Program-made: the position numbers and the translations under genes
The notes under the pieces: model-generated
Seen by the model: only the letters and a program-made list of their open reading frames with translations
Told to the model about the DNA's origin: nothing
Databases searched by the model: none
Shown: positions 30,901 through 50,018 of the stretch, piece after piece
How positions within the stretch are numbered: position 1 is the stretch's first letter
Layout of the letters: each line of letters opens with the position of its first letter
Assembly (NCBI GenBank): GCA_043821645.1
Contig: JBDRCO010000043.1
Coordinates: 32,001-96,000 of the forward strand
Length of the DNA stretch: 64,000 nt
Direction: 5' to 3'
Origin: Pseudomonadota bacterium
Lineage (GTDB): Bacteria > Myxococcota > JACRCW01 > JAFGSX01

Positions 30901-33085
30901 CGGTGCCTCGGGTGGTGCCTTCATGGTCGACGACTATCTGGCCAGCTACAGCACCAGCACCGGCACCCTGGTGTCCTTCGCCAGCCCCGCGGACATGGAG
31001 ACCGCGGTGGCGGTCCAGCGCCCGGTGTGCGTGATCTTCGTCGAGGATATCGAGCCGACCTCGATCGACAGCGACAGCTTCGCCGTCGCCTTCGTCAATG
31101 ACCTGGGTGGCCCAAGTCCGCTGCTGCCTGACCTGGGGTCGACCCCTGCGGGCTACCTGTTCGACGGCGTGGACCCGGCCACGGGCCAGCCCGACTCAGG
31201 CTACAGCAGCAACCGCGTGTGCTTCGTGCCAGGACCCGCTCTGTACGGCTGCCGTGCCATCGAAGAACTGCTGCCAGCCGGCGCAGAGATCCAGGTCCAC
31301 CTCAGCGACGACGTGATCAGCACGGGCGGCACGGCTCTCACCGGTGGCTACAGCCTCCGCTTCTTCACCGGTGGCCTCGAACACCTCGTCGCGTTTGCAC
31401 ACCGCAATACCGTGGGCGGCTCCGGTGCGCTCGAGGGCGCGCAGGAGATCCCGGTCAATGCCTCGTTCGTGCTGCAGTTCAGCGCTCCCGTCCAGGCTTC
31501 CAGCGTCGATGCCGCGCTGCAACTGGTGCGCCTGGACAGCGGCGCCGACATCCCGCTCGCGCCTGCCACCCTGGAGGCCGGCGACACCGTGGCCGTGGTG
31601 CAGGCCAGCGCCTTGATGCCCTACCTCGGCACGCTTCCCGAAGGCCTGGAACTTCGTGTCACCGGCGGCGCCGAGGGCGTGCGCATGGCCGACGGGCTCT
31701 ACCTGGACGCGCACCGCAGCGCGCGCTTCTTCACCAGCCCGGCAACCACGGTCGCGCTGTCTCCTCCCCAGGGCGAGAACGCGTACCAGGGCATGACCAC
31801 GCCCGCCATGTTCAGCCGCCCCATGTACCTGCCCTCGCTCAACACCGGCAGCTTCTTCGCCGTGGACAACACGGATGTGGTGGCGCTGACCGCCATCGTC
31901 GCCACCGCCATCGACGATGTGGACTCCGCCGTGCTGGTCCCGGTCCCGGCCTACGTGCTGGGACATGCGATCGAGGTCACAGTGACGTCGGACGCTCGCG
32001 ACTACCTGGGCAATCCTCTGCCGCAGGACTTCTCGGTCAGCTACGGCGCGATCCAGAGCGGCGCACAGCAGACCTCCTACCTGCCAGATCCCCTCAACGC
32101 GGGCAGCGTGAGCCCGACCCAGGGCGCCACGGTGGCCGGGGATCAGGTCTTCACCCTGACCTTCTCCAGCAACATGGCGCGTCTCAAGAACCGCATGCTG
32201 GCCACCTCGCTCAACAACGCCAGCCTGAGGATGCGTGAGACCGCCTGCCCCGGTGGCGGCGAGCGGGGCGTTCTCAACCAGTCCAACCGTTTCCTCCTCG
32301 GCACGCCAGGACAGCCGGACCGGCTGCAGTTCTGGGCCGACGATCTGTTGCGGCACGGCTGCAGCTACGAGATCCGGCTGGTGCAGAGTGAGTTCGCCAA
32401 CGTCTACGCCTTCTCCGATGGGGGTTTCAGCGATATCCTCGTCACCGTCACCGCGGAGAGCACGGCACCGACCCTGGCAAGCACGGTCCCTGCCGCGGGT
32501 GCCACCAACGTTGCGGCAGACGCCGCACTGGTGGCTCAGTTCAGCGAAGCCATGGACCCGGCGACCTTCGATGCCGCGACCAGCTTCGTGCTCAGTGACG
32601 GTGCCCCGGTCAGCGGACAGGTTGTGGTGAGCGGCAGCAGCGCCCGCTTCGAGCCGGACCACGCGCTGCTCGGTGGCGTCAGCTACACCTGGACATTGGG
32701 CAACACCCTGACCGACCTGGCGGGAAATGCCTTCGCAGGCGCCACCCGCACCTTCACGGTGGAAGCCATCGCGCCACAGGTGCAGACCATCAGCATCCCC
32801 GCGCTCGACAGCCTGCGCGTCACCTTCGACGAGGCCATGGATCCCGCAACCCTCCTCGCGGACGTGGTCGGCAGCGACGGCAGCATCCAGGTTCGCGCCC
32901 AGACCGGCGGGGCCACGGTGTGGGGCTGCTGGGAGCTCGACGCGAGCGGTAGCGCGGCCCTCTTCACGCCGCTGGAGCTGTTGAGCCCGGGCGCCAGCTA
33001 CCAGGTGACGGTCACCACCACACTGACAGACCTGGGTGGCACTGCCATCGCTGCCCCGGTGGTGCAGGTCGTGGTCGCGCCCTGA
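27929..33085 (+). CDS. Large surface lipoprotein with many SbsA/Big_5-type Ig-like repeats
   Basis: GAGGAGG RBS; lipobox LSC; repeated P..GA..V......TFSE modules; C-terminal LTDLAGN motif. Confidence 0.85.
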   Translation: MTRHIAWTLMLGTSLVSLSCDDRPFVTAVDLPLQVIALTPGHQATRVGRDSTVTAVFNLDLVPTSVENSANFYLEALPEGEAPLRIEATIVYQGASGDTAPRAVLTPAVLLDYSRRYRVTLGTGIQRQADEDQNLPAGQLPVQVQAVFTTEDPPPLLLVSAQPGAGVVGVARAAQLTLTFSEPLNCDSLEAGVQVLEQFDGHPHTSAADRSVPGQWDCREPADPEDSSCENGQCSAVFTPGQAFAYSSTLRVRLSGGRRDDGAIESFRATASGGQLPASIEVAFVVEHPDPLALIALSPGPDTEQVPLDAVIAAGFSEALECGTVNLDTVHVAMLRDPLRGGDRIDLTGTISCSGDEMLGFEADIDFDWSAQIELTLAGGAFVASSYPGDAIESARATSQGGQLADDVVMRFWALDPPALSVLSTTPGAGAQDVAVDSHVTVVFSEAIACDSVQAAVSDTSLHVTELADDGSAILHTVDLVSCAGATLELDGVPDYSLSGVVTWTLPATLASLRATSRGGHLDGGYSFSFRAQDPPPLRVLSTNPAAGAEGVSLDANITLTFSEPVNCATVQAAISDTTLHLAEVDDQGGSVAHTLALLSCSDATVVLDPAPSFTLSGLVTVTVPATLASLRQTSHGGTLEGGVVFGFRAADPPPLLVTSTFPGGGATTADLGTDLVVTFSEAIDCSTVEVAGIIIQETLDDGSIDSGHSVTITACSAAVLRLDLARDLQLSSTVVVSLPEAIRSARATSRGGSLAGGYTWVFGTANPPALLVVYTSPGDGNILVPVDKVIQIRFSEGLDPATVNETSVVIEDVTDAMAVVRLCDSAAGRTCQYALSDGDTTITVTPASDFAFDHRIRFTLTSALASARSTSQGGFLGLDLVYTFETTPVPPIEVVSLVPPPGSASIPLRPLISVEFNQDVLGSTVVVGGSPADLTVWLNPGTAPNAGGAVALTCTGCASTGTSFSFQPSVDLVAGSTYVFAIKGNINGIRGASGGAFMVDDYLASYSTSTGTLVSFASPADMETAVAVQRPVCVIFVEDIEPTSIDSDSFAVAFVNDLGGPSPLLPDLGSTPAGYLFDGVDPATGQPDSGYSSNRVCFVPGPALYGCRAIEELLPAGAEIQVHLSDDVISTGGTALTGGYSLRFFTGGLEHLVAFAHRNTVGGSGALEGAQEIPVNASFVLQFSAPVQASSVDAALQLVRLDSGADIPLAPATLEAGDTVAVVQASALMPYLGTLPEGLELRVTGGAEGVRMADGLYLDAHRSARFFTSPATTVALSPPQGENAYQGMTTPAMFSRPMYLPSLNTGSFFAVDNTDVVALTAIVATAIDDVDSAVLVPVPAYVLGHAIEVTVTSDARDYLGNPLPQDFSVSYGAIQSGAQQTSYLPDPLNAGSVSPTQGATVAGDQVFTLTFSSNMARLKNRMLATSLNNASLRMRETACPGGGERGVLNQSNRFLLGTPGQPDRLQFWADDLLRHGCSYEIRLVQSEFANVYAFSDGGFSDILVTVTAESTAPTLASTVPAAGATNVAADAALVAQFSEAMDPATFDAATSFVLSDGAPVSGQVVVSGSSARFEPDHALLGGVSYTWTLGNTLTDLAGNAFAGATRTFTVEAIAPQVQTISIPALDSLRVTFDEAMDPATLLADVVGSDGSIQVRAQTGGATVWGCWELDASGSAALFTPLELLSPGASYQVTVTTTLTDLGGTAIAAPVVQVVVAP

Positions 33086-41356: not shown

Positions 41357-42220
41357 ATGCTGCGCATCATCCTCGGATACGTCGGCACCCTCAGTGGCCT
41401 CGTGCTGACCTTCTTCTGGGGCACCCTGGCCGCGCTGGGTTATCCCCTCGGCGGTCAGCGCTTTGCCATCTGGTGCGCCCACATGTGGGGGCGCACGGTG
41501 CTGCGCGCGGGCAACGTGCTGGTGGCCGTGCGCGGCGGCGATCAGCTCGACCTCAGCCGGCCGCACCTGTACGTGTCCAACCACCAGAGCGGCCTGGACA
41601 TCCTGGTGCTGTGCGGGCACCTGCCGCAGCGCGTGGTCTTCGTCGCCAAGAAGGAGCTGGCTCGCGTGCCCTTCGTGGGCTGGGGCCTCAAGCTCGGGGG
41701 CCACGTGCTCATCGACCGCGCGGACCGCAGCCAGTCCTATTCCGCCCTCGAGGCCGCCGGGGCCGAGGTGCGCGCCGGCAAGAGCGTGATCATCTTCCCC
41801 GAGGGCACGCGCAGTCCGCCCCGCGAGCTGTGGCCGTTCAAGCGCGGCGCCATGATGCTGGCGCGGGCCGCGAGGGTGCCCATCGTGCCTGTCGGCATCG
41901 TGGGCTCCGCCGAGCGCATGAAGGCGCGGCAGATTTACACCACCCCGGGTCTGGTGGGTGTGCGCATCGGTCAGCCCATCCTGCCCGAGGACTTTGACGA
42001 CGACGATCACGTGCTGATCGAGCGCGTGCGCACCGAGATCGCCAGGCTGGCCGGGTCCAGCGCCGCCAAGGTGTTGCCGGCGAGGGGGCCGCACAGCAGG
42101 CGCGCGGTGAAGAAGGACCAGGGCGCGCCGGATGAGGGAGGGTCAGAGCAGCCGACGGTGGACAAGACAGGCGACGCCACGGAGCTCAGCGCCGAGGAGG
42201 GATCAACGCCCGTTCCCTAG
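41357..42220 (+). CDS. plsC: 1-acyl-sn-glycerol-3-phosphate acyltransferase
   Basis: SNHQSGLD, FVAKKEL, IDR, FPEGTRS, PIVPV. Confidence 0.92.
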   Translation: MLRIILGYVGTLSGLVLTFFWGTLAALGYPLGGQRFAIWCAHMWGRTVLRAGNVLVAVRGGDQLDLSRPHLYVSNHQSGLDILVLCGHLPQRVVFVAKKELARVPFVGWGLKLGGHVLIDRADRSQSYSALEAAGAEVRAGKSVIIFPEGTRSPPRELWPFKRGAMMLARAARVPIVPVGIVGSAERMKARQIYTTPGLVGVRIGQPILPEDFDDDDHVLIERVRTEIARLAGSSAAKVLPARGPHSRRAVKKDQGAPDEGGSEQPTVDKTGDATELSAEEGSTPVP

Positions 42221-45200
42221 CCGCGCCAGACCGTGGCTGGTCAACACCAGCAGTTCGCCGCGGTGCTCGATCACAGCGTTGACGTCGCGCACCGGCAGGC
42301 TCAGGTGCTCGACCTGCCCCGCCGCATCGACCCGCGCCGCGGGCATGCCCAGGCCCCCCACCCACAGCGTGCCGTCGACGATGGACAGACCCTGCGGCGG
42401 CACCCATTGCGCCTCGAGCCCCGCGATGGGCTCGACCCGAGCTCCGTCATAGCGATGGACGCCGCTGTCATAGGTGCCGATGAACAGGCTGCCGTCGTGA
42501 GCGCGCAGGCTGGTGACCCAGTTCACGCCAAAACCCTGGGCCGCGGTGATCGCGTCGAGGCCCGCGTCCTCGACCACGAACAACCCCTCCTTGGTGCCGG
42601 CATAAAGCTGTCCCTCGACCTCGGCCACGGCCATGAAACTTCGTGAGCCCAGGGCGCTCTGCGCATCCAGGCGTTGCAGAACATCATCGGCCTTCAGCAG
42701 GTAGAGCCCGCGCGCACTCGCCACCGCAAGGCCCTGCGCGGTCGACACCAGATCGTGCACCGCCACCTCGTCCAGCACGGTGCGCACCACCCGATCCTGG
42801 CGCGTGTCCACCGCCAGCAGTCCGCCCTCGCTACCCAGCCACAGCAGCCCGGCGTGCGAGGCCAGCACGTTGAGCCGCCGCTGCATGGGGTTCAGGCCGG
42901 GGGCGACACCCGTCAGCTCCTGCCCGTCGACGCGGAACAGACCCGAGTCGAGACCGGCCACGTACAGGGCGCCGTCGTGGTGCAGGGCGTGGCTCAGGTC
43001 CGGAGCTCCCCGGCGCACGTTGTCGAGGGCGCTGTCCACCGCGTTGAAGCGGCCGCGGTCATCGCGCACGAAGCGCCCGAAGCCACTGTGCACCTCGAGG
43101 CCGTGGGCCGTGCTCCACAGGCCCATCACATGCTTGTGGGCAAAGCGCGTGCGCACCGCGCGGCGTCCCCGCACCTGCCACAGCCCGGTGTAGGCCGTGC
43201 CCACGAACAGCGTGTCGTCGTGCCGCGCCAGGGCCGTGACAAAGCGTGAACCGACCCTGAGCGCGCTCCGCCGCAGTCGCTGGCCCCGCAGCTCGTACAG
43301 ACCCTGGCCCAGCACCGCCACCAGGACCCGACCATTGCCCAGAGGCTCGAGGCCGGTGACCGCGTGGTGCAGGTCCACACCGGCGATGCGGCGGGCTGTG
43401 CAGCGTGCGTCGCGGCAGCTCAGGCGCAACAGATCGCCGCCCTCGGTGCCGAGCAGGATCTCGTCGCGGCCACTGGCGAGCTGCGAACTGAGCTCGAGCG
43501 ATCGCAGGTTCAGGCCATGGTTCGAGAAGCGCCGTGGGCCGCGATCGGTGGTCAGCACCAGCTCGTCTCCGTCGAGGCTCAGCCCGCTCACCGAGTGCAT
43601 GCGCGCGGGGACGGCCAGCACTTTCCCGGTCGGCTCCGGGAGGGACTGCTGCACCGCCTGCACCTCGAGCTCGTCGCCCTGGCGGCGGCACGCAAAGGCA
43701 CTGCGGTTGCCCGCGCGGTCGCGCACATACACCGTGAAGGCCGCGGGCAGATCGGCGATGGCCACCAGCCAGCTCTGGCCCACGGGCGACAAGGTCAGGG
43801 CCTTTTTGTCGTCACCGTGGATGATCACCGAAGCCACCGCCGGGGTCTCGTCGCCGGTGACCACGCTGAGCAGGCCCTGCTCGGGCTCGAACAGCAGCGA
43901 AGCCTGCGGACCGCGCTCGTCGATCTGGTAAAAGGCGTGGGCCAGCTCGACCCGGCCGTCGTCGAAGTGCTTGAACACCTCGATGCGGTAGAAGGTGGCG
44001 CTCCAGCCGCGCGGCACCAGGAAGCGATCGGTGAAAGTGTCGAGCTCGGGGTCGTGCACCAGACGCCGCTTCTCACCAAAGGGATACCAGGCCACCACCT
44101 CGACCAGACCGGGTTCGCCGTGCACGGTGAGCACCGGGTCACCGGGCAGGGTGGCGGCCACGCTCAGCTCGGGGTCCACCGCATGCAGCGAGGTGAAGGC
44201 GGTGGGGATGCGCTCGCGCAGGCTGACCTGGATGATGCGCTGCTTGAGCGCGGCGTCGGGTTCGGCGCGGTACGTCTGCATCCAGCTCGCGAGCAGGCGC
44301 CCGTACACGCTGCGCTGCACCGACGCGGCAGCGTCGCTTCCAGGCTCGGGCGTGGTGATGGCGATGTGGCGCTCGATCTCGTGACCCTCGATGTCGAGCC
44401 GCACCGTGAGGGGCCCCAGCTCGTCGAGGAGCGCGTGCAGGCGCAGCAGTCCGCCCTCGGCCACCTGCAGCGCCGGGCTTCCGATCAGGCGCAGGTCGCG
44501 ACCGGCCTGGCGGATCCCCTGCACCAGCAGCACGGGCAGGGTGATCTGATCGGCGAGCTGCAAAAGCTTCGCCGGTGCGTCCCCTTCGGTCTGGAACAGC
44601 GCGGCGTTCGCCGGTACCTGGTCGGCAAAGAACGCGGCCTCGTGGGCATCCGCGAGCAGGATGGTGCGCAGCTCCGAGCGCGCCAGCTCGGCCAGGTCGG
44701 GCAGCTGCGGGTCGGTGACCAGGGCGCAGCGAACCTCGCTCAGACCACAGCCCAGGCGCTGTGCCGCGCGCTCCAGATCGCTGGCCGAGGTCGCGACCCA
44801 GGGCTGGTCTTGCAGGGCCCGCACCAGGGTATCGGGGTTCTCGCCGTCCAGGTTCTGCAGCAGGCGTTCGCCCACCACGTGCAGCTCCACCGGCACCGGC
44901 GACTGGTCCAGCACCCGCTCGATCAGAGTGCGCAGGCTGGCGCCGCGGCGGCGCAGCGAGGGGGAACCGTCGATGAGCAGGTGCAGCGATGTGTAGGGTG
45001 CCCGCCATTCGCCGCCGTCATACAGGGCGACCTGGATCTGCACGCCGTGGCGTGCGCCTTCCTCGGCCTCACCCTCGATCAGGGACACCGCCGCGGCGCG
45101 GGTCATCAGGGGCGGCATCTCCTCGTTCCACCACAGGTCCAGGGGCGTGCTGGCACTGAGCGCCAGGCTCACCCGCTGCGGCGAGCGCGCCAGCACCTGG

Positions 45201-45796
45201 GGCTTGTGACCCTCGACCCCGAAGCCAGCCAGGCGCGCCGCGGTCTCGATCTCGCACAGCACCGTCGACGGAGTGGCCGCTTGCCCCAGAAAGCTGTCGA
45301 CGGGAAGCGCCAGGTGAAAGCGCCCCATTTCCATCTCCACCGGAATGCTCAGCTCGACCTGGATGCGCTTTTGCTCCCCGGCGCGCAGCGGGAACACCGA
45401 GAAGCTCTGGATGTTGCGCTCCGCGGTGAGCAAGGCCGTGCTGCGACCCGCGGCCGCGGCAGCGTGGTGAGCGGCCTTGGCCTCGTCCTTCTCCTTGAGC
45501 TCGGCGCGCACCAGGCGGCCGTCGGAGTAGAAGCCAAAACCCGTGACCTGGGCGCCCTCGGGCAGCAGCAGCTGGTAGTCGGCCTGCCCAAGCTCCTCGC
45601 CGTCGTTGGCAAAGATCTGGGTCAGCTCGACGCGAGCCTCGTTGCCTGAGATGCGAGCGCGAATGGCCTGGCTCACCAGAGGCAACTGGCGCGCGGTGGT
45701 GAAGAGACCCGCAGGCCTGTCCTCCTGGGCAAGGGCCAGAGCGCAGATCACAAGGGCGACCACGACGACGACGGGGCGCGCGGTGTGGCGGTTCAT
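42203..45796 (-). CDS. VIT domain / vWA-like / beta-propeller secreted protein
   Basis: Signal peptide; VIT (ARVELTQIFAN..YQLLLPEGA.V..F), LIDGSPS MIDAS-like, PGDP..PFGE..RFLVP module, propeller repeats (LFVGT..GL). Confidence 0.75.
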   Translation of the reverse strand: MNRHTARPVVVVVALVICALALAQEDRPAGLFTTARQLPLVSQAIRARISGNEARVELTQIFANDGEELGQADYQLLLPEGAQVTGFGFYSDGRLVRAELKEKDEAKAAHHAAAAAGRSTALLTAERNIQSFSVFPLRAGEQKRIQVELSIPVEMEMGRFHLALPVDSFLGQAATPSTVLCEIETAARLAGFGVEGHKPQVLARSPQRVSLALSASTPLDLWWNEEMPPLMTRAAAVSLIEGEAEEGARHGVQIQVALYDGGEWRAPYTSLHLLIDGSPSLRRRGASLRTLIERVLDQSPVPVELHVVGERLLQNLDGENPDTLVRALQDQPWVATSASDLERAAQRLGCGLSEVRCALVTDPQLPDLAELARSELRTILLADAHEAAFFADQVPANAALFQTEGDAPAKLLQLADQITLPVLLVQGIRQAGRDLRLIGSPALQVAEGGLLRLHALLDELGPLTVRLDIEGHEIERHIAITTPEPGSDAAASVQRSVYGRLLASWMQTYRAEPDAALKQRIIQVSLRERIPTAFTSLHAVDPELSVAATLPGDPVLTVHGEPGLVEVVAWYPFGEKRRLVHDPELDTFTDRFLVPRGWSATFYRIEVFKHFDDGRVELAHAFYQIDERGPQASLLFEPEQGLLSVVTGDETPAVASVIIHGDDKKALTLSPVGQSWLVAIADLPAAFTVYVRDRAGNRSAFACRRQGDELEVQAVQQSLPEPTGKVLAVPARMHSVSGLSLDGDELVLTTDRGPRRFSNHGLNLRSLELSSQLASGRDEILLGTEGGDLLRLSCRDARCTARRIAGVDLHHAVTGLEPLGNGRVLVAVLGQGLYELRGQRLRRSALRVGSRFVTALARHDDTLFVGTAYTGLWQVRGRRAVRTRFAHKHVMGLWSTAHGLEVHSGFGRFVRDDRGRFNAVDSALDNVRRGAPDLSHALHHDGALYVAGLDSGLFRVDGQELTGVAPGLNPMQRRLNVLASHAGLLWLGSEGGLLAVDTRQDRVVRTVLDEVAVHDLVSTAQGLAVASARGLYLLKADDVLQRLDAQSALGSRSFMAVAEVEGQLYAGTKEGLFVVEDAGLDAITAAQGFGVNWVTSLRAHDGSLFIGTYDSGVHRYDGARVEPIAGLEAQWVPPQGLSIVDGTLWVGGLGMPAARVDAAGQVEHLSLPVRDVNAVIEHRGELLVLTSHGLARLGNGR

Positions 45797-46785
45797 GATG
45801 CACCTCCGAACTCGACGCGAATGGGAGTGGTGATGGGCAGGCAGCGATCGAGCAGGTACTCGGTGGCGCCGCCCACGCCCTGGGTCAGGTGCAGGCGAAG
45901 CTGCAGGTCGTCGTCGCTGGCCTCGAACACGGGAGCGCCGGCCAGGCCCGTACCCTCGGGCAGCACCAGGCTCACGGTGCAGGGCGCGCCGGTGGCCTTG
46001 CTGTGCGCAGCGTCGAGCCCGCCGTGATAGACCAGCACACCCGGAGCGTTGAGCGTGTCACGCCTGTCCACCTCGCGCGCCGTCACCGCGGTGCGCGGTG
46101 TTGGCTCGGGCTCGCGCGCCAGGGTGCGCATCATGGCCTCGGCCACGCCGCTGGTCTGGGTGCTGACGCGACCTATGTGTTGGTAGCTGCCCTCGCTCTG
46201 GTACGCGATGCGCCTGAAGAAGGCCACGCCCTCGCTGGGCAACGAACGGCAGCCGATGGCGTGGATGGCCACCTGCCTGTCGTGCGCCAGCTGCACGATC
46301 TGCTCGGGGGTCGGGTGCTGGTGGTAGTCGAGGTGCGGCGGCGCGTCGCCGATCAGGAAGATCTGGCGCTCGGTCCCCACACTGCGATCCCAGTTCATGC
46401 CGTTCAGGGCCACGTGCAGGCCAGACAGCACGTCCTCGGGGCCATCGCCGCCGCCGTCGGCCACCAGAGCGGCCAGGAAGCGCTGGCTCTGCTCCACATC
46501 CTCGGTCAGGGGGGCCTGCTTGGTGACGTACTGATCGCCCTGATCGCGGTAGGCCACGACACCCAGCCGCACCCGTTCCTGGGGACGCGAGGCGCGCAGG
46601 GCCTGACTGATCTGGACCACCCGCTCCTTGACCTCGCGCAGCTCGCCCGACATCGAGCCCGTGGTGTCGAGCACGAACACCACATCGAGGTCGGCGCGCG
46701 CTGGCCTCGCACTCGCCAGCACCAGCACCGCGCCCAGCATCGCCAGGCCCGCCCTCACCGCCGCTTGCCTTGCCCCTGCCTGCAT
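45793..46785 (-). CDS. Secreted vWA domain protein
   Basis: LDVVFVLDTTGSM, VAYRD, GGGDGPEDV, LIGDAPPH; AGGAGG RBS. Confidence 0.88.
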   Translation of the reverse strand: MQAGARQAAVRAGLAMLGAVLVLASARPARADLDVVFVLDTTGSMSGELREVKERVVQISQALRASRPQERVRLGVVAYRDQGDQYVTKQAPLTEDVEQSQRFLAALVADGGGDGPEDVLSGLHVALNGMNWDRSVGTERQIFLIGDAPPHLDYHQHPTPEQIVQLAHDRQVAIHAIGCRSLPSEGVAFFRRIAYQSEGSYQHIGRVSTQTSGVAEAMMRTLAREPEPTPRTAVTAREVDRRDTLNAPGVLVYHGGLDAAHSKATGAPCTVSLVLPEGTGLAGAPVFEASDDDLQLRLHLTQGVGGATEYLLDRCLPITTPIRVEFGGAS

Positions 46786-46830
46786 CGCCCACCTCCTGCC
46801 GCGGATCCGACCGCTGTTTCAGGGGGAAGT

Positions 46831-46846
46831 AGCGTGGGGCGTGCCA
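46831..46846 (-). promoter_or_regulatory. sigma54 -24/-12 promoter for vWA/VIT operon
   Basis: TGGCACGCCCCACGCT; IHF-like AT tract GAATGTATTGATG at 46871-46883. Confidence 0.6.
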
Positions 46847-46963
46847 GCCACGCGGCCGCGAATATACGTTGAATGTATTGATGAAATCGCCGTTCCGGCG
46901 GACCCGGGTGTCGGCGTCAGAACACGATAAATGGCTGCGTGATGCTCTTCGTAGATCAAAACC

Positions 46964-47001
46964 AAGCGTTCACGGCGACCGCCGTGGCAGACGCCTTATC
47001 A
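46964..47001 (-). other. SECIS-like hairpin 2 (after terminal UGA)
   Basis: UGA UAA GGC GUC UGC CAC GGC GGU C: stem CACGGC/GCCGUG, loop GGUC at 22-25, lower stem AGGCGU/ACGCUU. Confidence 0.6.
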
Positions 47002-47337
47002 GGAACCGCCCGGCGGGCGCACCGCCGCTCCACCCAGGGCCTGCTGCATGCCCTCCTTGCCCATGACCTGCTCCAGCAGCTGCAGCAGCTTCTTCAGGAG
47101 TTCCTGCAAGCCGTCCTCGCCGCCGCCCTGTGCACCCTGCGCGCCTCCGGCTCCCTGGCTTCCTTGAGCGCTACCTGCGCTCGCGGGAGAGCCTCAGCCA
47201 CCGCTCGCTTTCTTGGCGCTGAGCTGCTCTAGGATGTCCTTCACCTTCTTGACCATCTGCTCGGGTGCCATCTGCGACGGCTTGTGCTTGATGGCCCGCC
47301 GCGCAGCTCCTGCCCTTCCTCCCGCTCCGACTTTCAT
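46996..47337 (-). CDS. Candidate selenoprotein, 113 aa, Sec48 and Sec113
   Basis: GGAGGT RBS (alt ATG 47361 with GGAGG). Frame continues through TGA 47194-47196 with coding-like codons to TGA TAA; SECIS-like hairpin after each UGA. Confidence 0.7.
47157..47196 (-). other. SECIS-like hairpin 1 (after internal UGA)
   Basis: UGA GGC UCU CCC GCG AGC GCA GGU A: stem GAGCGC/GCGCUC, loop AGGUA with G23/U24, lower stems UCC/GGA and GGCU/AGCC. Confidence 0.7.
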
Positions 47338-47411
47338 CCCGCACCTCCCGGGCGCAGCCATCGCGCCCTCCGCCTTCGAAGGATATCGCGCACACACACC
47401 TTGAGGTTGCT

Positions 47412-47420
47412 AATATACCA
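47412..47420 (-). promoter_or_regulatory. Extended -10 element for candidate selenoprotein gene
   Basis: TGGTATATT on minus strand in AT-richer divergent intergenic region. Confidence 0.4.
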
Positions 47421-47490
47421 AGAGCCAGTGTCGGGTGTTGTCGCACCACGCGCCGCGAGCCAGGCGCTCGCACGCGCCAAGGGAGGGCCC

Positions 47491-47943
47491 ATGAGCCAGC
47501 GGACCGAAAGGGAGATCGCCTCCACCCGCCTGGAGGATCTGCTCAACCAGCGCGAGACCGAGGACAGCTACAGGTACCCTCGCCACGTCATCCGCGACTT
47601 CATCGCGATGTGCGTGTTCGATCTGGGACTGGAGGTCACACCCCCGCTGCAACAGCCCATGATGGACTTCTTCGAGGAGCTCGGCCTGCCGCCGGAGGCC
47701 AGTGCCACCGAGTACGATGCGCGCATCCGCGAGTACTTTGCACAGCACCCCGTGGATCCGCAGTTGACCCAGGAGCTGGGCAGCCTGGGCCGTGACGTGT
47801 TGCTGGGGCGCGTCGAGGGCTACCGGAGCACCATCGAGGAGATGCGCGCCCTCATCAGTATCGGTGCCCAGCTGGCTACGCGCGCGCCGGTCGACGAGAT
47901 TGCGCGGCCCGTGGCGAAACCCAAAAAGGGCCTCGACTCCTGA
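47491..47943 (+). CDS. Hypothetical acidic cytoplasmic protein (150 aa)
   Basis: GGGAGG RBS, ATG 47491, typical codon usage, no signal peptide. Confidence 0.7.
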   Translation: MSQRTEREIASTRLEDLLNQRETEDSYRYPRHVIRDFIAMCVFDLGLEVTPPLQQPMMDFFEELGLPPEASATEYDARIREYFAQHPVDPQLTQELGSLGRDVLLGRVEGYRSTIEEMRALISIGAQLATRAPVDEIARPVAKPKKGLDS

Positions 47944-48156: not shown

Positions 48157-48435
48157 ATGAAAGCCAAGTGTGCGATCCTGGGCCTGGTGCTTGCGCTGGG
48201 CTGCGCGCCGCGCCCCGACATCCCGACCCAGGACCTAGGCAAGGACTGCCACAGCGACAGCGACTGCGCCCAGGGCCAGAAGTGCACCTCGTACGCGCAT
48301 CCGAGCTGCGACAACCAGCAGTGTCAGAGCTGCGAGATCGCCTGCGACGCAGACAGCGACTGTCCCGAGGGCTTGCATTGCAACCTGCCACCCGTGTTGC
48401 CGGATTCGGTGGTGAACACCTGCATGCAGGATTGA
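48157..48435 (+). CDS. Small Cys-rich lipoprotein
   Basis: Lipobox LALGC; C.SDSDC..G..C repeated twice. Confidence 0.8.
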   Translation: MKAKCAILGLVLALGCAPRPDIPTQDLGKDCHSDSDCAQGQKCTSYAHPSCDNQQCQSCEIACDADSDCPEGLHCNLPPVLPDSVVNTCMQD

Positions 48436-48518
48436 AAAGGCAAGGCGCCGCGACGCCGCGCGAGGGTTCGCGCCTGCGTTTGGTGAATCATTCAATGACG
48501 CATGATGCTGGAGGAAAA

Positions 48519-50018
48519 ATGACTCGAAGCGAGAACATGGGTGGACTTGGGGGATTCTTCACACGCATCGCCGTCGGCTTGTGGCTGATCGGCGTGCTGG
48601 CGGCCTGCTCCGACATGAGCATGGGCGGCAGCTACCTGGGAGCGACTCCGGGCGGCGCCCAGGACATGAGCCAGGCGCGCGAGATCATCGCGCAGGGAGG
48701 GGTGCCTGGCCCCCAGCAATTCACCGCCGAAGGCCTTTTCAGCGAGCACGACCTGACCCTGGCCAACCAGCCCACCTGCGCACAGGTGCTGTGCCTGGGC
48801 AGCGCGGCCGGCCTCGAGGTCGGGCTCGACGACAACCAGCGCGACCTGTTCGTGCAGATAGGCATGTCCTCCAGCATTCGCGCCGATGCCTTCGAGCGCT
48901 TGCCGCTCAACCTGGGCATCGTCGTCGATACCTCGGGCTCCATGAGCAGCGTGCTACCGGAGCTCAGGCAGGCCCTGCACGCCATGGTCGACGTGCTGCG
49001 GCCCGACGACCGTGTGGCCCTGGTGGTGTTCGAGGCGACGGCGCGCGTGATCCAGGCCTCGACCCTGGGCACCGACGCGGCCGTGCTCCACGCCGCCGTG
49101 GACAGGCTGCAGACCGGCGGCTCGACCAACATGGAAGCCGGCATGCGCCTGGGCTATGCCCAGATCGACGACCACGTCGATGCCGAGCACCTGTCGCGGC
49201 TGATGGTCTTCACCGATGCGCAGACCAACACCGGCGTCACCGACGTCGGCAGCTTCGGCGCCATGACCCAGGCAGCTGCCGCGCGCGGCATCGGTTTCAC
49301 CTTCTTCGGCTTTGGCCAGAACTTCTCGAATGAATTCGTCGACCAGATCGCGCACCTGCGCGGCGGCAACTACCGCTTCGTGCGCGCCGAGGACGTGAAG
49401 CCCATCTTCGAGGACGAGTTCGACTACCTGGTCACGCCCATCGCCTACGACCTGCGCGTGGCCCTGACCGCGACCAGCGGCGTGCAGCGCCGCGCCATCT
49501 ACGGCGTGCCCCAGGTCGACAGCCACGTCGACGGCGAGCTGTTCGACGTCAGCACGGTGTTCCTGAGCAAGCGCAAGGGCGGCATCGTGCTGCGCTTCGA
49601 CGGTCGCGACCTCGAGGCCCTGCGCGACGGTGATCAGCTCAAGCTGGGCGAGGCCGTGATCACATACGACACCGTCGACGGTGTGCCCGTGGAGCAGCGC
49701 TTGGCCGTGACCATGCCGCTGATCGGCAGCGTGGAGCCCGACGCCAGCCACTACCCGGACGTGCACATCCAGCGCACCCTCGCCGTCACCGACCAGTACC
49801 TGGCCATGCAACGGGTGTGCTCGGACTACTGGGGTGAGGGCGCGGATGAGTGGTCCCAAGTACGCGCCACCGACTTCGACCTGGCCGATGCCACCGCTCG
49901 ACTGGACGCCGCCATCGCCAAGGTGCAGGCCTCTCACGCCGTGCTCGACGACCCCAACCTGCAGCGCGAGATCGATCTGCTGACCAAGCTCAAGCAGAAC
50001 GTCGCTGCCGGCGAATGA
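48519..50018 (+). CDS. vWA (YfbK-like) lipoprotein
   Basis: GGAGG RBS; lipobox LAAC; LNLGIVVDTSGSM, GGSTNMEAG, FTDAQTN. Confidence 0.85.
   Translation: MTRSENMGGLGGFFTRIAVGLWLIGVLAACSDMSMGGSYLGATPGGAQDMSQAREIIAQGGVPGPQQFTAEGLFSEHDLTLANQPTCAQVLCLGSAAGLEVGLDDNQRDLFVQIGMSSSIRADAFERLPLNLGIVVDTSGSMSSVLPELRQALHAMVDVLRPDDRVALVVFEATARVIQASTLGTDAAVLHAAVDRLQTGGSTNMEAGMRLGYAQIDDHVDAEHLSRLMVFTDAQTNTGVTDVGSFGAMTQAAAARGIGFTFFGFGQNFSNEFVDQIAHLRGGNYRFVRAEDVKPIFEDEFDYLVTPIAYDLRVALTATSGVQRRAIYGVPQVDSHVDGELFDVSTVFLSKRKGGIVLRFDGRDLEALRDGDQLKLGEAVITYDTVDGVPVEQRLAVTMPLIGSVEPDASHYPDVHIQRTLAVTDQYLAMQRVCSDYWGEGADEWSQVRATDFDLADATARLDAAIAKVQASHAVLDDPNLQREIDLLTKLKQNVAAGE

Follow-up and report, generated by a model that had tools for sequence, protein, structure and literature searches.

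A small Gly-rich locus with an in-frame TGA and a SECIS-like hairpin in a selenocysteine-using Myxococcota genome: genuine stop or Sec48?

On the minus strand of a 64,000-nt stretch of DNA (the window; positions 32,001 to 96,000 of contig JBDRCO010000043.1, assembly GCA_043821645.1, from a bacterium placed by GTDB in the Myxococcota), a small Gly-rich open reading frame (ORF A) runs for 47 codons to a TGA that is followed in the same frame by 64 more sense codons and by an RNA hairpin resembling a selenocysteine insertion sequence (SECIS). The original prediction, made from the sequence alone, took this TGA for a selenocysteine (Sec) codon, Sec48, in a candidate new selenoprotein. Our analysis favours, at a probability of about 0.45, a genuine stop at the UGA with a separately translated mini-ORF downstream. 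This preference rests on the end of the relative P0005, the codon score of the Gly-rich linker behind the TGA, a TTG codon preceded by GAGG, the protein P0007 and the profile columns shared by the two halves. It also rests on hairpins that occur at chance level, on relatives free of Cys, on the lack of a redox motif and on the disorder predicted at residue 48. The locus itself consists of one small gene, or of two, belonging to an unannotated family rich in Gly.

Results

Coding potential was scored with a codon log-likelihood model trained on 2451 long ORFs of this genome (a 7.07-Mb assembly in 140 contigs, 67% G+C). The ORF A frame scored 0.215 per codon, the top of the six frames, with the runner-up at -0.19. 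Two strain single-nucleotide polymorphisms lie within ORF A, at 47230 (CTA>CTG) and 47305 (GCT>GCC), and both are synonymous third-position changes; a further one at 47340 falls inside the spacer between the Shine-Dalgarno sequence and the ATG. The NCBI record P0004 is the exact 47-aa ORF A protein. ORF A is a real small protein gene. The frame as originally described, from the ATG at 47337 through the TGA at 47196-47194 on the minus strand and on through 64 more sense codons, agrees with the sequence, as does the peptide quoted for it. A gene on the plus strand was rejected, the antisense ORF at 46939-47232 scoring below the minus frame (0.23 versus 0.35 overall, and 0.38 versus 0.73 per codon over the last 39 codons). 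A promoter and terminator scan of 46500-47700 found none, and next to none of the locus's sequence words occur in the study's two RNA runs, which says nothing on expression.

The TGA is the same in the Logan contigs of run X1 (46997-47921), which may be the source sample of the assembly, and of run X2 (47183-47413); in a third contig, which spans the downstream part, the sequence is unaltered as well. Confirmation of this codon had been called for along with the prediction, and it stands in the assemblies of two runs from two studies. Sequencing or assembly error at the TGA was rejected on these contigs and on the relative P0005, which ends there. Run X1 holds two coexisting strains, with a bubble at 46996 (TAA/TAG); one 925-nt contig of this run has 11 differences from the window, all at or above 47230, and is identical to it over 46997-47229. 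An open frame of at least 64 codons follows 1266 of the 2935 well-supported TGA stops in the genome (43%), so the open frame alone carries no weight. Read as Sec, the codon would stand in the context ASGG-U-GSPAS, in a 112-residue readthrough product that has no Cys and neither a CxxU nor a UxxC motif.

Protein records include relatives of both halves. P0005 (from JGI, on a 1299-nt contig) is a 47-aa protein, 79% identical to ORF A, that ends at the same residue (...SAKKASGG) and is identical over its last 17 residues; its stop at the site is read from the protein record. P0007, an NCBI record on a 4082-nt contig, is a separate 39-aa ORF with 24 of 39 residues identical to the last 39 codons of the readthrough frame and the same stop position. 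Its first residue aligns with codon 74 (GAG here), three codons before the candidate TTG start. Judged from these two sequences, both halves are conserved, and the position of the ORF A stop is conserved too. A Cys at the aligned site in homologues, which had been named as support for Sec48, was not encountered: P0005 stops there, and the five positional relatives described below are Cys-free throughout.

Searches of about 5.8 billion and about 1.8 billion proteins returned no full-length relative of the 112-residue product. The 64-aa downstream half searched alone, at E up to 10, also returned nothing, and since P0007 was missed as well the reach of this search is limited. Genome searches for either half drew a blank in 40 relatives, in the three nearest genomes and in 400 genomes of the phylum, the 400-genome search giving per-genome E values of 0.006-0.01 only, which is chance level for 400 genomes. 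Against NCBIfam, at E up to 10, the candidate matched nothing except one spurious entry at E 0.076. Two further records, P0002 and P0003, have their first 37 residues in common with ORF A and then diverge. The P0002 contig (L044, positions 1-1345), the sole locus among the matches listed, is 98.4% identical to window 47225-47786; beyond 47225 it passes into unrelated DNA of 50-54% G+C that carries a glycyl-radical-enzyme activase-like radical-SAM gene. L044 was treated as an assembly chimera, which the switch to unrelated DNA of lower G+C makes most likely, and its C-terminus was not used. The junction recurs in P0003 (from ENA), a record that may derive from the same reads.

The downstream half is not uniform. 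It had been described as having normal GC3-rich usage, which is true in part. The last 39 codons reach 0.73 per codon, higher than the coding mean (0.55). The first 25 codons past the TGA have a G+C content at third codon positions (GC3) of 0.60 by our own count and a score of -0.25 per codon, below the -0.03 that marks the 5th percentile for true coding windows; GC3 over all 64 codons is 0.78, against a genome mean of 0.85. When all frames were scored over the 25-codon stretch, none was coding-like. The G+C content of this stretch (0.76) is not distinctive, since 6.9% of 75-nt stretches located behind true stops match or exceed it. Nor can low complexity alone explain the dip in codon score, because an intact paralogue has Gly-rich linkers that score 0.6-0.76. 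The TTG at codon 77 is the sole start-capable codon from the TGA to codon 92, with no ATG or GTG in that interval. TTG makes up 5.7% of the Leu codons of the genome, and of the eight Leu codons in the downstream half this one alone is a TTG. A single-sequence AlphaFold model of the 112-residue readthrough protein (mean pLDDT 63.6) predicted helices at residues 7-15, 25-44, 74-92 and 94-101; pLDDT fell below 50 from residue 44 to residue 71, residue 48 included. The N-terminal and C-terminal halves match the same columns of the relatives' profile, 29-48 (E 1.1e-3) and 35-48 (E 7e-3), respectively, and so look like two copies of one unit.

The hairpin is as originally described in its stem, its loop and its GCA GGU register, on which sequence and folding agree. 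The upper stem GAGCGC/GCGCUC (6 bp) occupies 47182-47166 and encloses the loop AGGUA at nt 21-25 (47176-47172), counting the U of UGA as nt 1. GCA GGU falls at nt 19-24, the register that it also has in the SECIS of E. coli fdhF. The fold energy of nt 10-48 is -13.7 kcal/mol, with an extended lower stem in the minimum-free-energy fold. [quoted passage not shown] The candidate lies inside every one of these limits, with its AGGUA loop, 6-bp stem, 17 nt from UGA to loop and -13.7 kcal/mol. For its composition, the 64-nt stretch folds with an unremarkable energy (z = -0.62), 56 of 200 shuffles folding equally well or better. An Rfam search around the site, at E up to 10, gave no family; it was also blank at four loci with verified SECIS elements and is uninformative here for that reason.

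The genome encodes a Sec machinery, for which a search had been suggested: selA (531.3 bits), selB (256.3 bits, cut-off 242), a Sec-type selD (387.7 bits) with one in-frame TGA (...TETVCGAG-U-ASKLGPG...) and a tRNA-Sec (78.6 bits) that ARAGORN calls as tRNA-SeC with anticodon tca. Sec genes were verified by Pfam matches spanning one TGA together with paralogues that align Cys or a second TGA. At least seven such genes are present, namely selD, three Prx-like genes, two HesB-like genes (G[YF]G-U-GGP) and one MvhD-like gene (CHW-U). The four molybdopterin enzymes of the genome are all free of in-frame stops, and a Sec formate dehydrogenase was accordingly not seen. The verified SECIS hairpins have stems of 5-8 bp and loops of 3-5 nt with GG: GGUC at nt 21-24, GGG at 25-27, GGA at 24-26, AGGCU at 26-30, UGGAC at 29-33 (twice) and GGUCU at 30-34. 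This set accommodates the candidate hairpin, which is most like that of the Prx-like gene at C112:7306, whose stem is at nt 15-20/25-30 and whose loop is GGUC at nt 21-24. The candidate hairpin is thus like both the published consensus (PMC13188914) and the verified elements of the genome itself.

How often such a hairpin arises by accident was measured with a strict pattern of at least six Watson-Crick pairs and a loop of 3-6 nt that contains GG and starts at nt 20-31. Five of the seven verified SECIS elements pass it; HesB-like 1 fails with only five pairs, and Prx 2 fails on a bulge. Genome-wide, the pattern follows 872 of 157477 TGAs (0.55%). At the local composition it appears in 1.0% of mononucleotide shuffles, 1.07% of dinucleotide shuffles and 0.96% of synonymous resamplings of the peptide. 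Comparable TGAs were defined as those with at least 10 open codons before and at least 25 after, and with coding-like scores on both sides (n = 477). The pattern was found at six of these, comprising four verified Sec genes, the candidate and C51:151507(-), so that two unexplained matches were observed where 2.6 are expected by chance. C51:151507 has a TGA and a 6-bp hairpin with a GGGC loop at SECIS distance, and it is a false positive, a chance look-alike, because its frame is antisense to a strongly coding gene (0.65 per codon). The candidate hairpin is compatible with a SECIS, yet statistically it is not beyond the accidental output of this genome.

The small gene is divergent from a 150-aa gene that has no Pfam or NCBIfam match, with homologues in 14 of 400 other genomes of the phylum searched and one paralogue in the same genome. 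A small Gly/Met-rich ORF (73-85 aa) adjoins the 150-aa homologue in five of 20 other loci fetched; three of the five were picked up by script and those in L084 and L085 were read from ORF lists. These small ORFs are divergent in G001 and beside the paralogue in the same genome, and co-directional in G034, G142 and G150; the candidate shares the divergent orientation with the small ORFs of L080 and L082, and it is seen in the two closest loci, the paralogue and G001, as well. All five encode Cys-free proteins in uninterrupted ORFs, with repeated ML-NPMKML-like motifs, beside a protein of 150-170 aa that belongs to neither a Pfam nor an NCBIfam family. The candidate resembles them in the alternation of Gly-rich stretches with a short helical motif and in its neighbour, and the motif P-x-x-M-[LV]-x-K-[LV]-K-[DE]-[IM]-L stands at residues 25-37 in both the candidate and P0008. 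It differs from them in length, since the five are unbroken at 73-85 aa and the candidate has 47 aa, or 112 aa if read through. Aligned to the Gly/Met-rich profile with hhalign, the candidate gave a weak match (E 1.1e-3, probability 20%), and a hidden Markov model of the family at E 1e-4 matched the five seed loci only and did not reach the candidate locus.

Several other observations concern these proteins and the surrounding genes. P0006, a giant protein of 2282 aa, contains a weak repeat, A-[LI]-x-x-KP-x-E-x-YP-x-x-Q-[IL]-x-K-[IL], in 13 copies that resemble ORF A residues 15-45 (24-39% identity in each copy, E 2e-16 over all of them). Judged by its sequence, the gene next upstream in L085 seems to encode a FliR/SctT-type export-apparatus protein. 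Downstream of the small gene, window 42203-46785 (minus) holds two genes that overlap by 4 nt, one for a 330-aa secreted VWA protein and one for a VIT-domain protein of 1197 aa, the latter with weak beta-propeller matches (E 0.012-0.025). On the other side, window 48168-50018 (plus) encodes another VWA protein. All three VWA/VIT proteins have weak matches, far under the cut-off, to the marine sortase-target family TIGR03788. The coordinates of the features are collected in Table 1.

Table 1. Coordinates of the small locus, its neighbour and the genes used for comparison (window positions unless a contig or locus is named).
Feature	Position	Strand	Basis or remark
Shine-Dalgarno sequence GGGAGGTG	47342..47349	minus	4-nt spacer to ATG 47337; read from sequence
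ORF A, 47 codons, MKVGAGG...LSAKKASGG	47197..47337	minus	strong Shine-Dalgarno sequence, codon score and protein records
In-frame TGA, genuine stop (favoured) or Sec48	47194..47196	minus	sequence and Logan contigs
SECIS-like hairpin	47149..47193	minus	lower stem nt 4-12/34-48, upper stem nt 15-20/26-31
Gly/Ser/Ala/Gln-rich stretch, 25 codons (GSPASAGSAQGSQGAGGAQGAQGGG), linker or spacer	47119..47193	minus	no in-frame ATG, GTG or TTG
Conserved coding segment, 39 codons (EDGLQELLKKLLQLLEQVMGKEGMQQALGGAAVRPPGGS), predicted helical	47002..47118	minus	codon score and P0007
TTG, codon 77, candidate start of mini-ORF B (36 aa)	47107..47109	minus	GAGG 5 nt upstream
Tandem stops TGA TAA closing the frame	46996..47001	minus	strain variant at 46996 gives TAG
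Divergent 150-aa gene, unknown family	47491..47943	plus	no Pfam or NCBIfam match
Seven Sec gene sites, outside the window	C87:204011-204937(-), C112:7306(-), C132:42988(+), C51:176889(-), C51:147244(-), C68:307409(-), C9:18367(-)		
Gly/Met-rich small ORFs	L080 1103-1333(-), L082 952-1173(-), L084 2045-2299(-), L085 810-1058(-), L086 1230-1475(+)		

Discussion

In the reading that we favour, the UGA at 47194-47196 would be a genuine stop, and the locus would yield a 47-residue helical small protein from ORF A. The last 36-39 codons would be translated alone as a mini-protein, ORF B, with putative initiation at TTG 47109 behind the GAGG. The two units may be repeats of one motif, KK...[IL]LEQ plus a Gly-rich tail, and ORF A does end in a Gly-rich tail followed by a stop, like the positional relatives ending in ...FTGG and ...GGGQ. 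The arrangement is probably the outcome of a tandem duplication, or of a single Gly-rich small-protein gene having been split by a GGA>TGA change within the linker. The 25-codon Gly-rich stretch would then be a decaying linker, and the SECIS-like hairpin would be a chance product of 76% G+C sequence. Both peptides might partner the neighbouring 150-aa protein, a guess prompted by the small Gly-rich ORFs that adjoin its homologues in five other loci.

Several observations weigh against a genuine stop with a separate mini-ORF. The hairpin matches both the bSECIS consensus and the SECIS elements of this genome well, and chance provides one at only 0.55-1% per TGA. The units of ORF A and ORF B lie in one frame with no stop between them. 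As a start codon TTG is weak and rare, GAGG is a modest Shine-Dalgarno sequence, the start would differ between codon 77 here and the P0007 start aligned to codon 74 (GAG here), and the 36-aa ORF from the TTG was not found in the protein collection. In relatives, linkers resembling the Gly-rich stretch are translated. Evidently the TGA has been kept alongside two conserved halves, which a recoding signal would explain too. A chance hairpin on one reading and a chance TTG with GAGG on the other are two coincidences that roughly cancel, and the remaining points lean to a genuine stop.

The most serious competitor, which we nevertheless regard as unlikely, is Sec insertion. SelB would bind the hairpin at nt 15-31 and Sec would be inserted at the UGA, giving a 112-residue protein with a helix, a Gly-rich linker bearing Sec48 and a second helix. 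Several findings speak in its favour: selA, selB, a selD with its own in-frame TGA and a tRNA-Sec with anticodon TCA are in the genome, the trait is in use in seven verified Sec genes, the TGA is present in two runs from two studies, and the hairpin is inside all published bSECIS limits (PMC13188914). The strict pattern is passed by five of seven verified SECIS elements versus 0.55% of all TGAs. The two halves share one open frame with no ATG or GTG from the TGA to codon 92, the final 39 codons are conserved and plainly coding, and a Gly-flanked Sec has a precedent in the HesB-like genes of the same genome (G-U-GGP). The end of P0005 at the same site is counted for both readings. Several points tell against Sec48. 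There are no Cys-containing relatives, although these exist for nearly all selenoproteins according to the review (PMC13188914), and neither a CxxU nor a UxxC motif is present. Residue 48 falls inside a predicted disordered, low-complexity linker, and the 25 codons that bear the SECIS and encode the linker are not coding-like. Independent initiation is indicated by the rare TTG with its GAGG and by the annotation of P0007 as a separate ORF. The number of hairpins agrees with chance, and the fold z is -0.62. Were Sec nevertheless inserted, which we doubt, the product would be a selenoprotein of an undescribed kind, with a lone Sec in a disordered linker and without Cys relatives or a redox motif; the Sec might perhaps act as a selenium or metal ligand, flexibly tethered to the adjoining 150-aa protein.

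Among established selenoprotein systems, the candidate is like the Prx-like gene G000:C112:7306(-) in its in-frame UGA, in a G+C-rich stem of 6-7 bp and in a loop GGU within nt 21-24. That gene differs in having Cys paralogues aligned to U, a TxxU-type site and a Pfam domain spanning the UGA, and its codon scores are 0.74 and 0.64 on either side of the UGA, whereas the 25 codons after the UGA of the candidate are not coding-like. The HesB-like selenoproteins (TIGR01911, motif UxGP as given in PMC13188914) are likewise small with a Gly-flanked Sec; they are folded domains with Cys forms, in contrast with the predicted disordered linker that holds the U of the candidate. The UXX-star and GxGU families (NF041114, NF041211) of the same review (PMC13188914) also are short, poorly characterised proteins with Sec beside Gly, and their Sec has been proposed there as a ligand rather than a classical redox site. 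In these families Sec is three residues from the C-terminus, whereas in the candidate it would be residue 48 of 112.

Two further explanations appear less probable than Sec insertion. By the first, the UGA would be read through without Sec, in a leaky manner by near-cognate decoding, so that mostly the 47-aa product and a minority 112-aa isoform would be made, with the TGA TAA enforcing the end of the extension. Such readthrough would fit the shared frame, whose 64 open codons include a C-terminal part that is conserved and coding-like, the double stop at its end and the downstream part without a canonical start; yet the poor codon usage of the linker argues against regular translation, frames of equal length stay open after 43% of TGA stops, and the TTG with GAGG is left unexplained. 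By the second, which we likewise hold to be very doubtful, only the 47-aa protein would be made and the downstream 64 codons would be an untranslated relic of a longer gene cut by a nonsense mutation; the stop position conserved in P0005, the codon bias lost right after the TGA and the single step GGA>TGA in a Gly-rich linker with three GGA codons agree with this, but the last 39 codons score 0.73 per codon, over the genome coding mean, and their 24/39 identity and common stop with P0007 would not be expected to be retained by a relic.

If Sec48 were true, it would break two rules by which selenoproteins have been discovered, that Sec has Cys homologues and that Sec sits in a folded redox site, and SECIS-first searches could then find families that searches for Cys/Sec pairs miss. 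If the codon is a plain stop, which we deem likelier, the locus illustrates how easily a G+C-rich genome makes a consensus-grade SECIS look-alike behind a stop in an open frame, and the analysis gives measured SECIS false-positive rates for one Sec-using genome. Either way, an unannotated small protein, or a pair of them, is added beside an uncharacterised family of 150-aa proteins.

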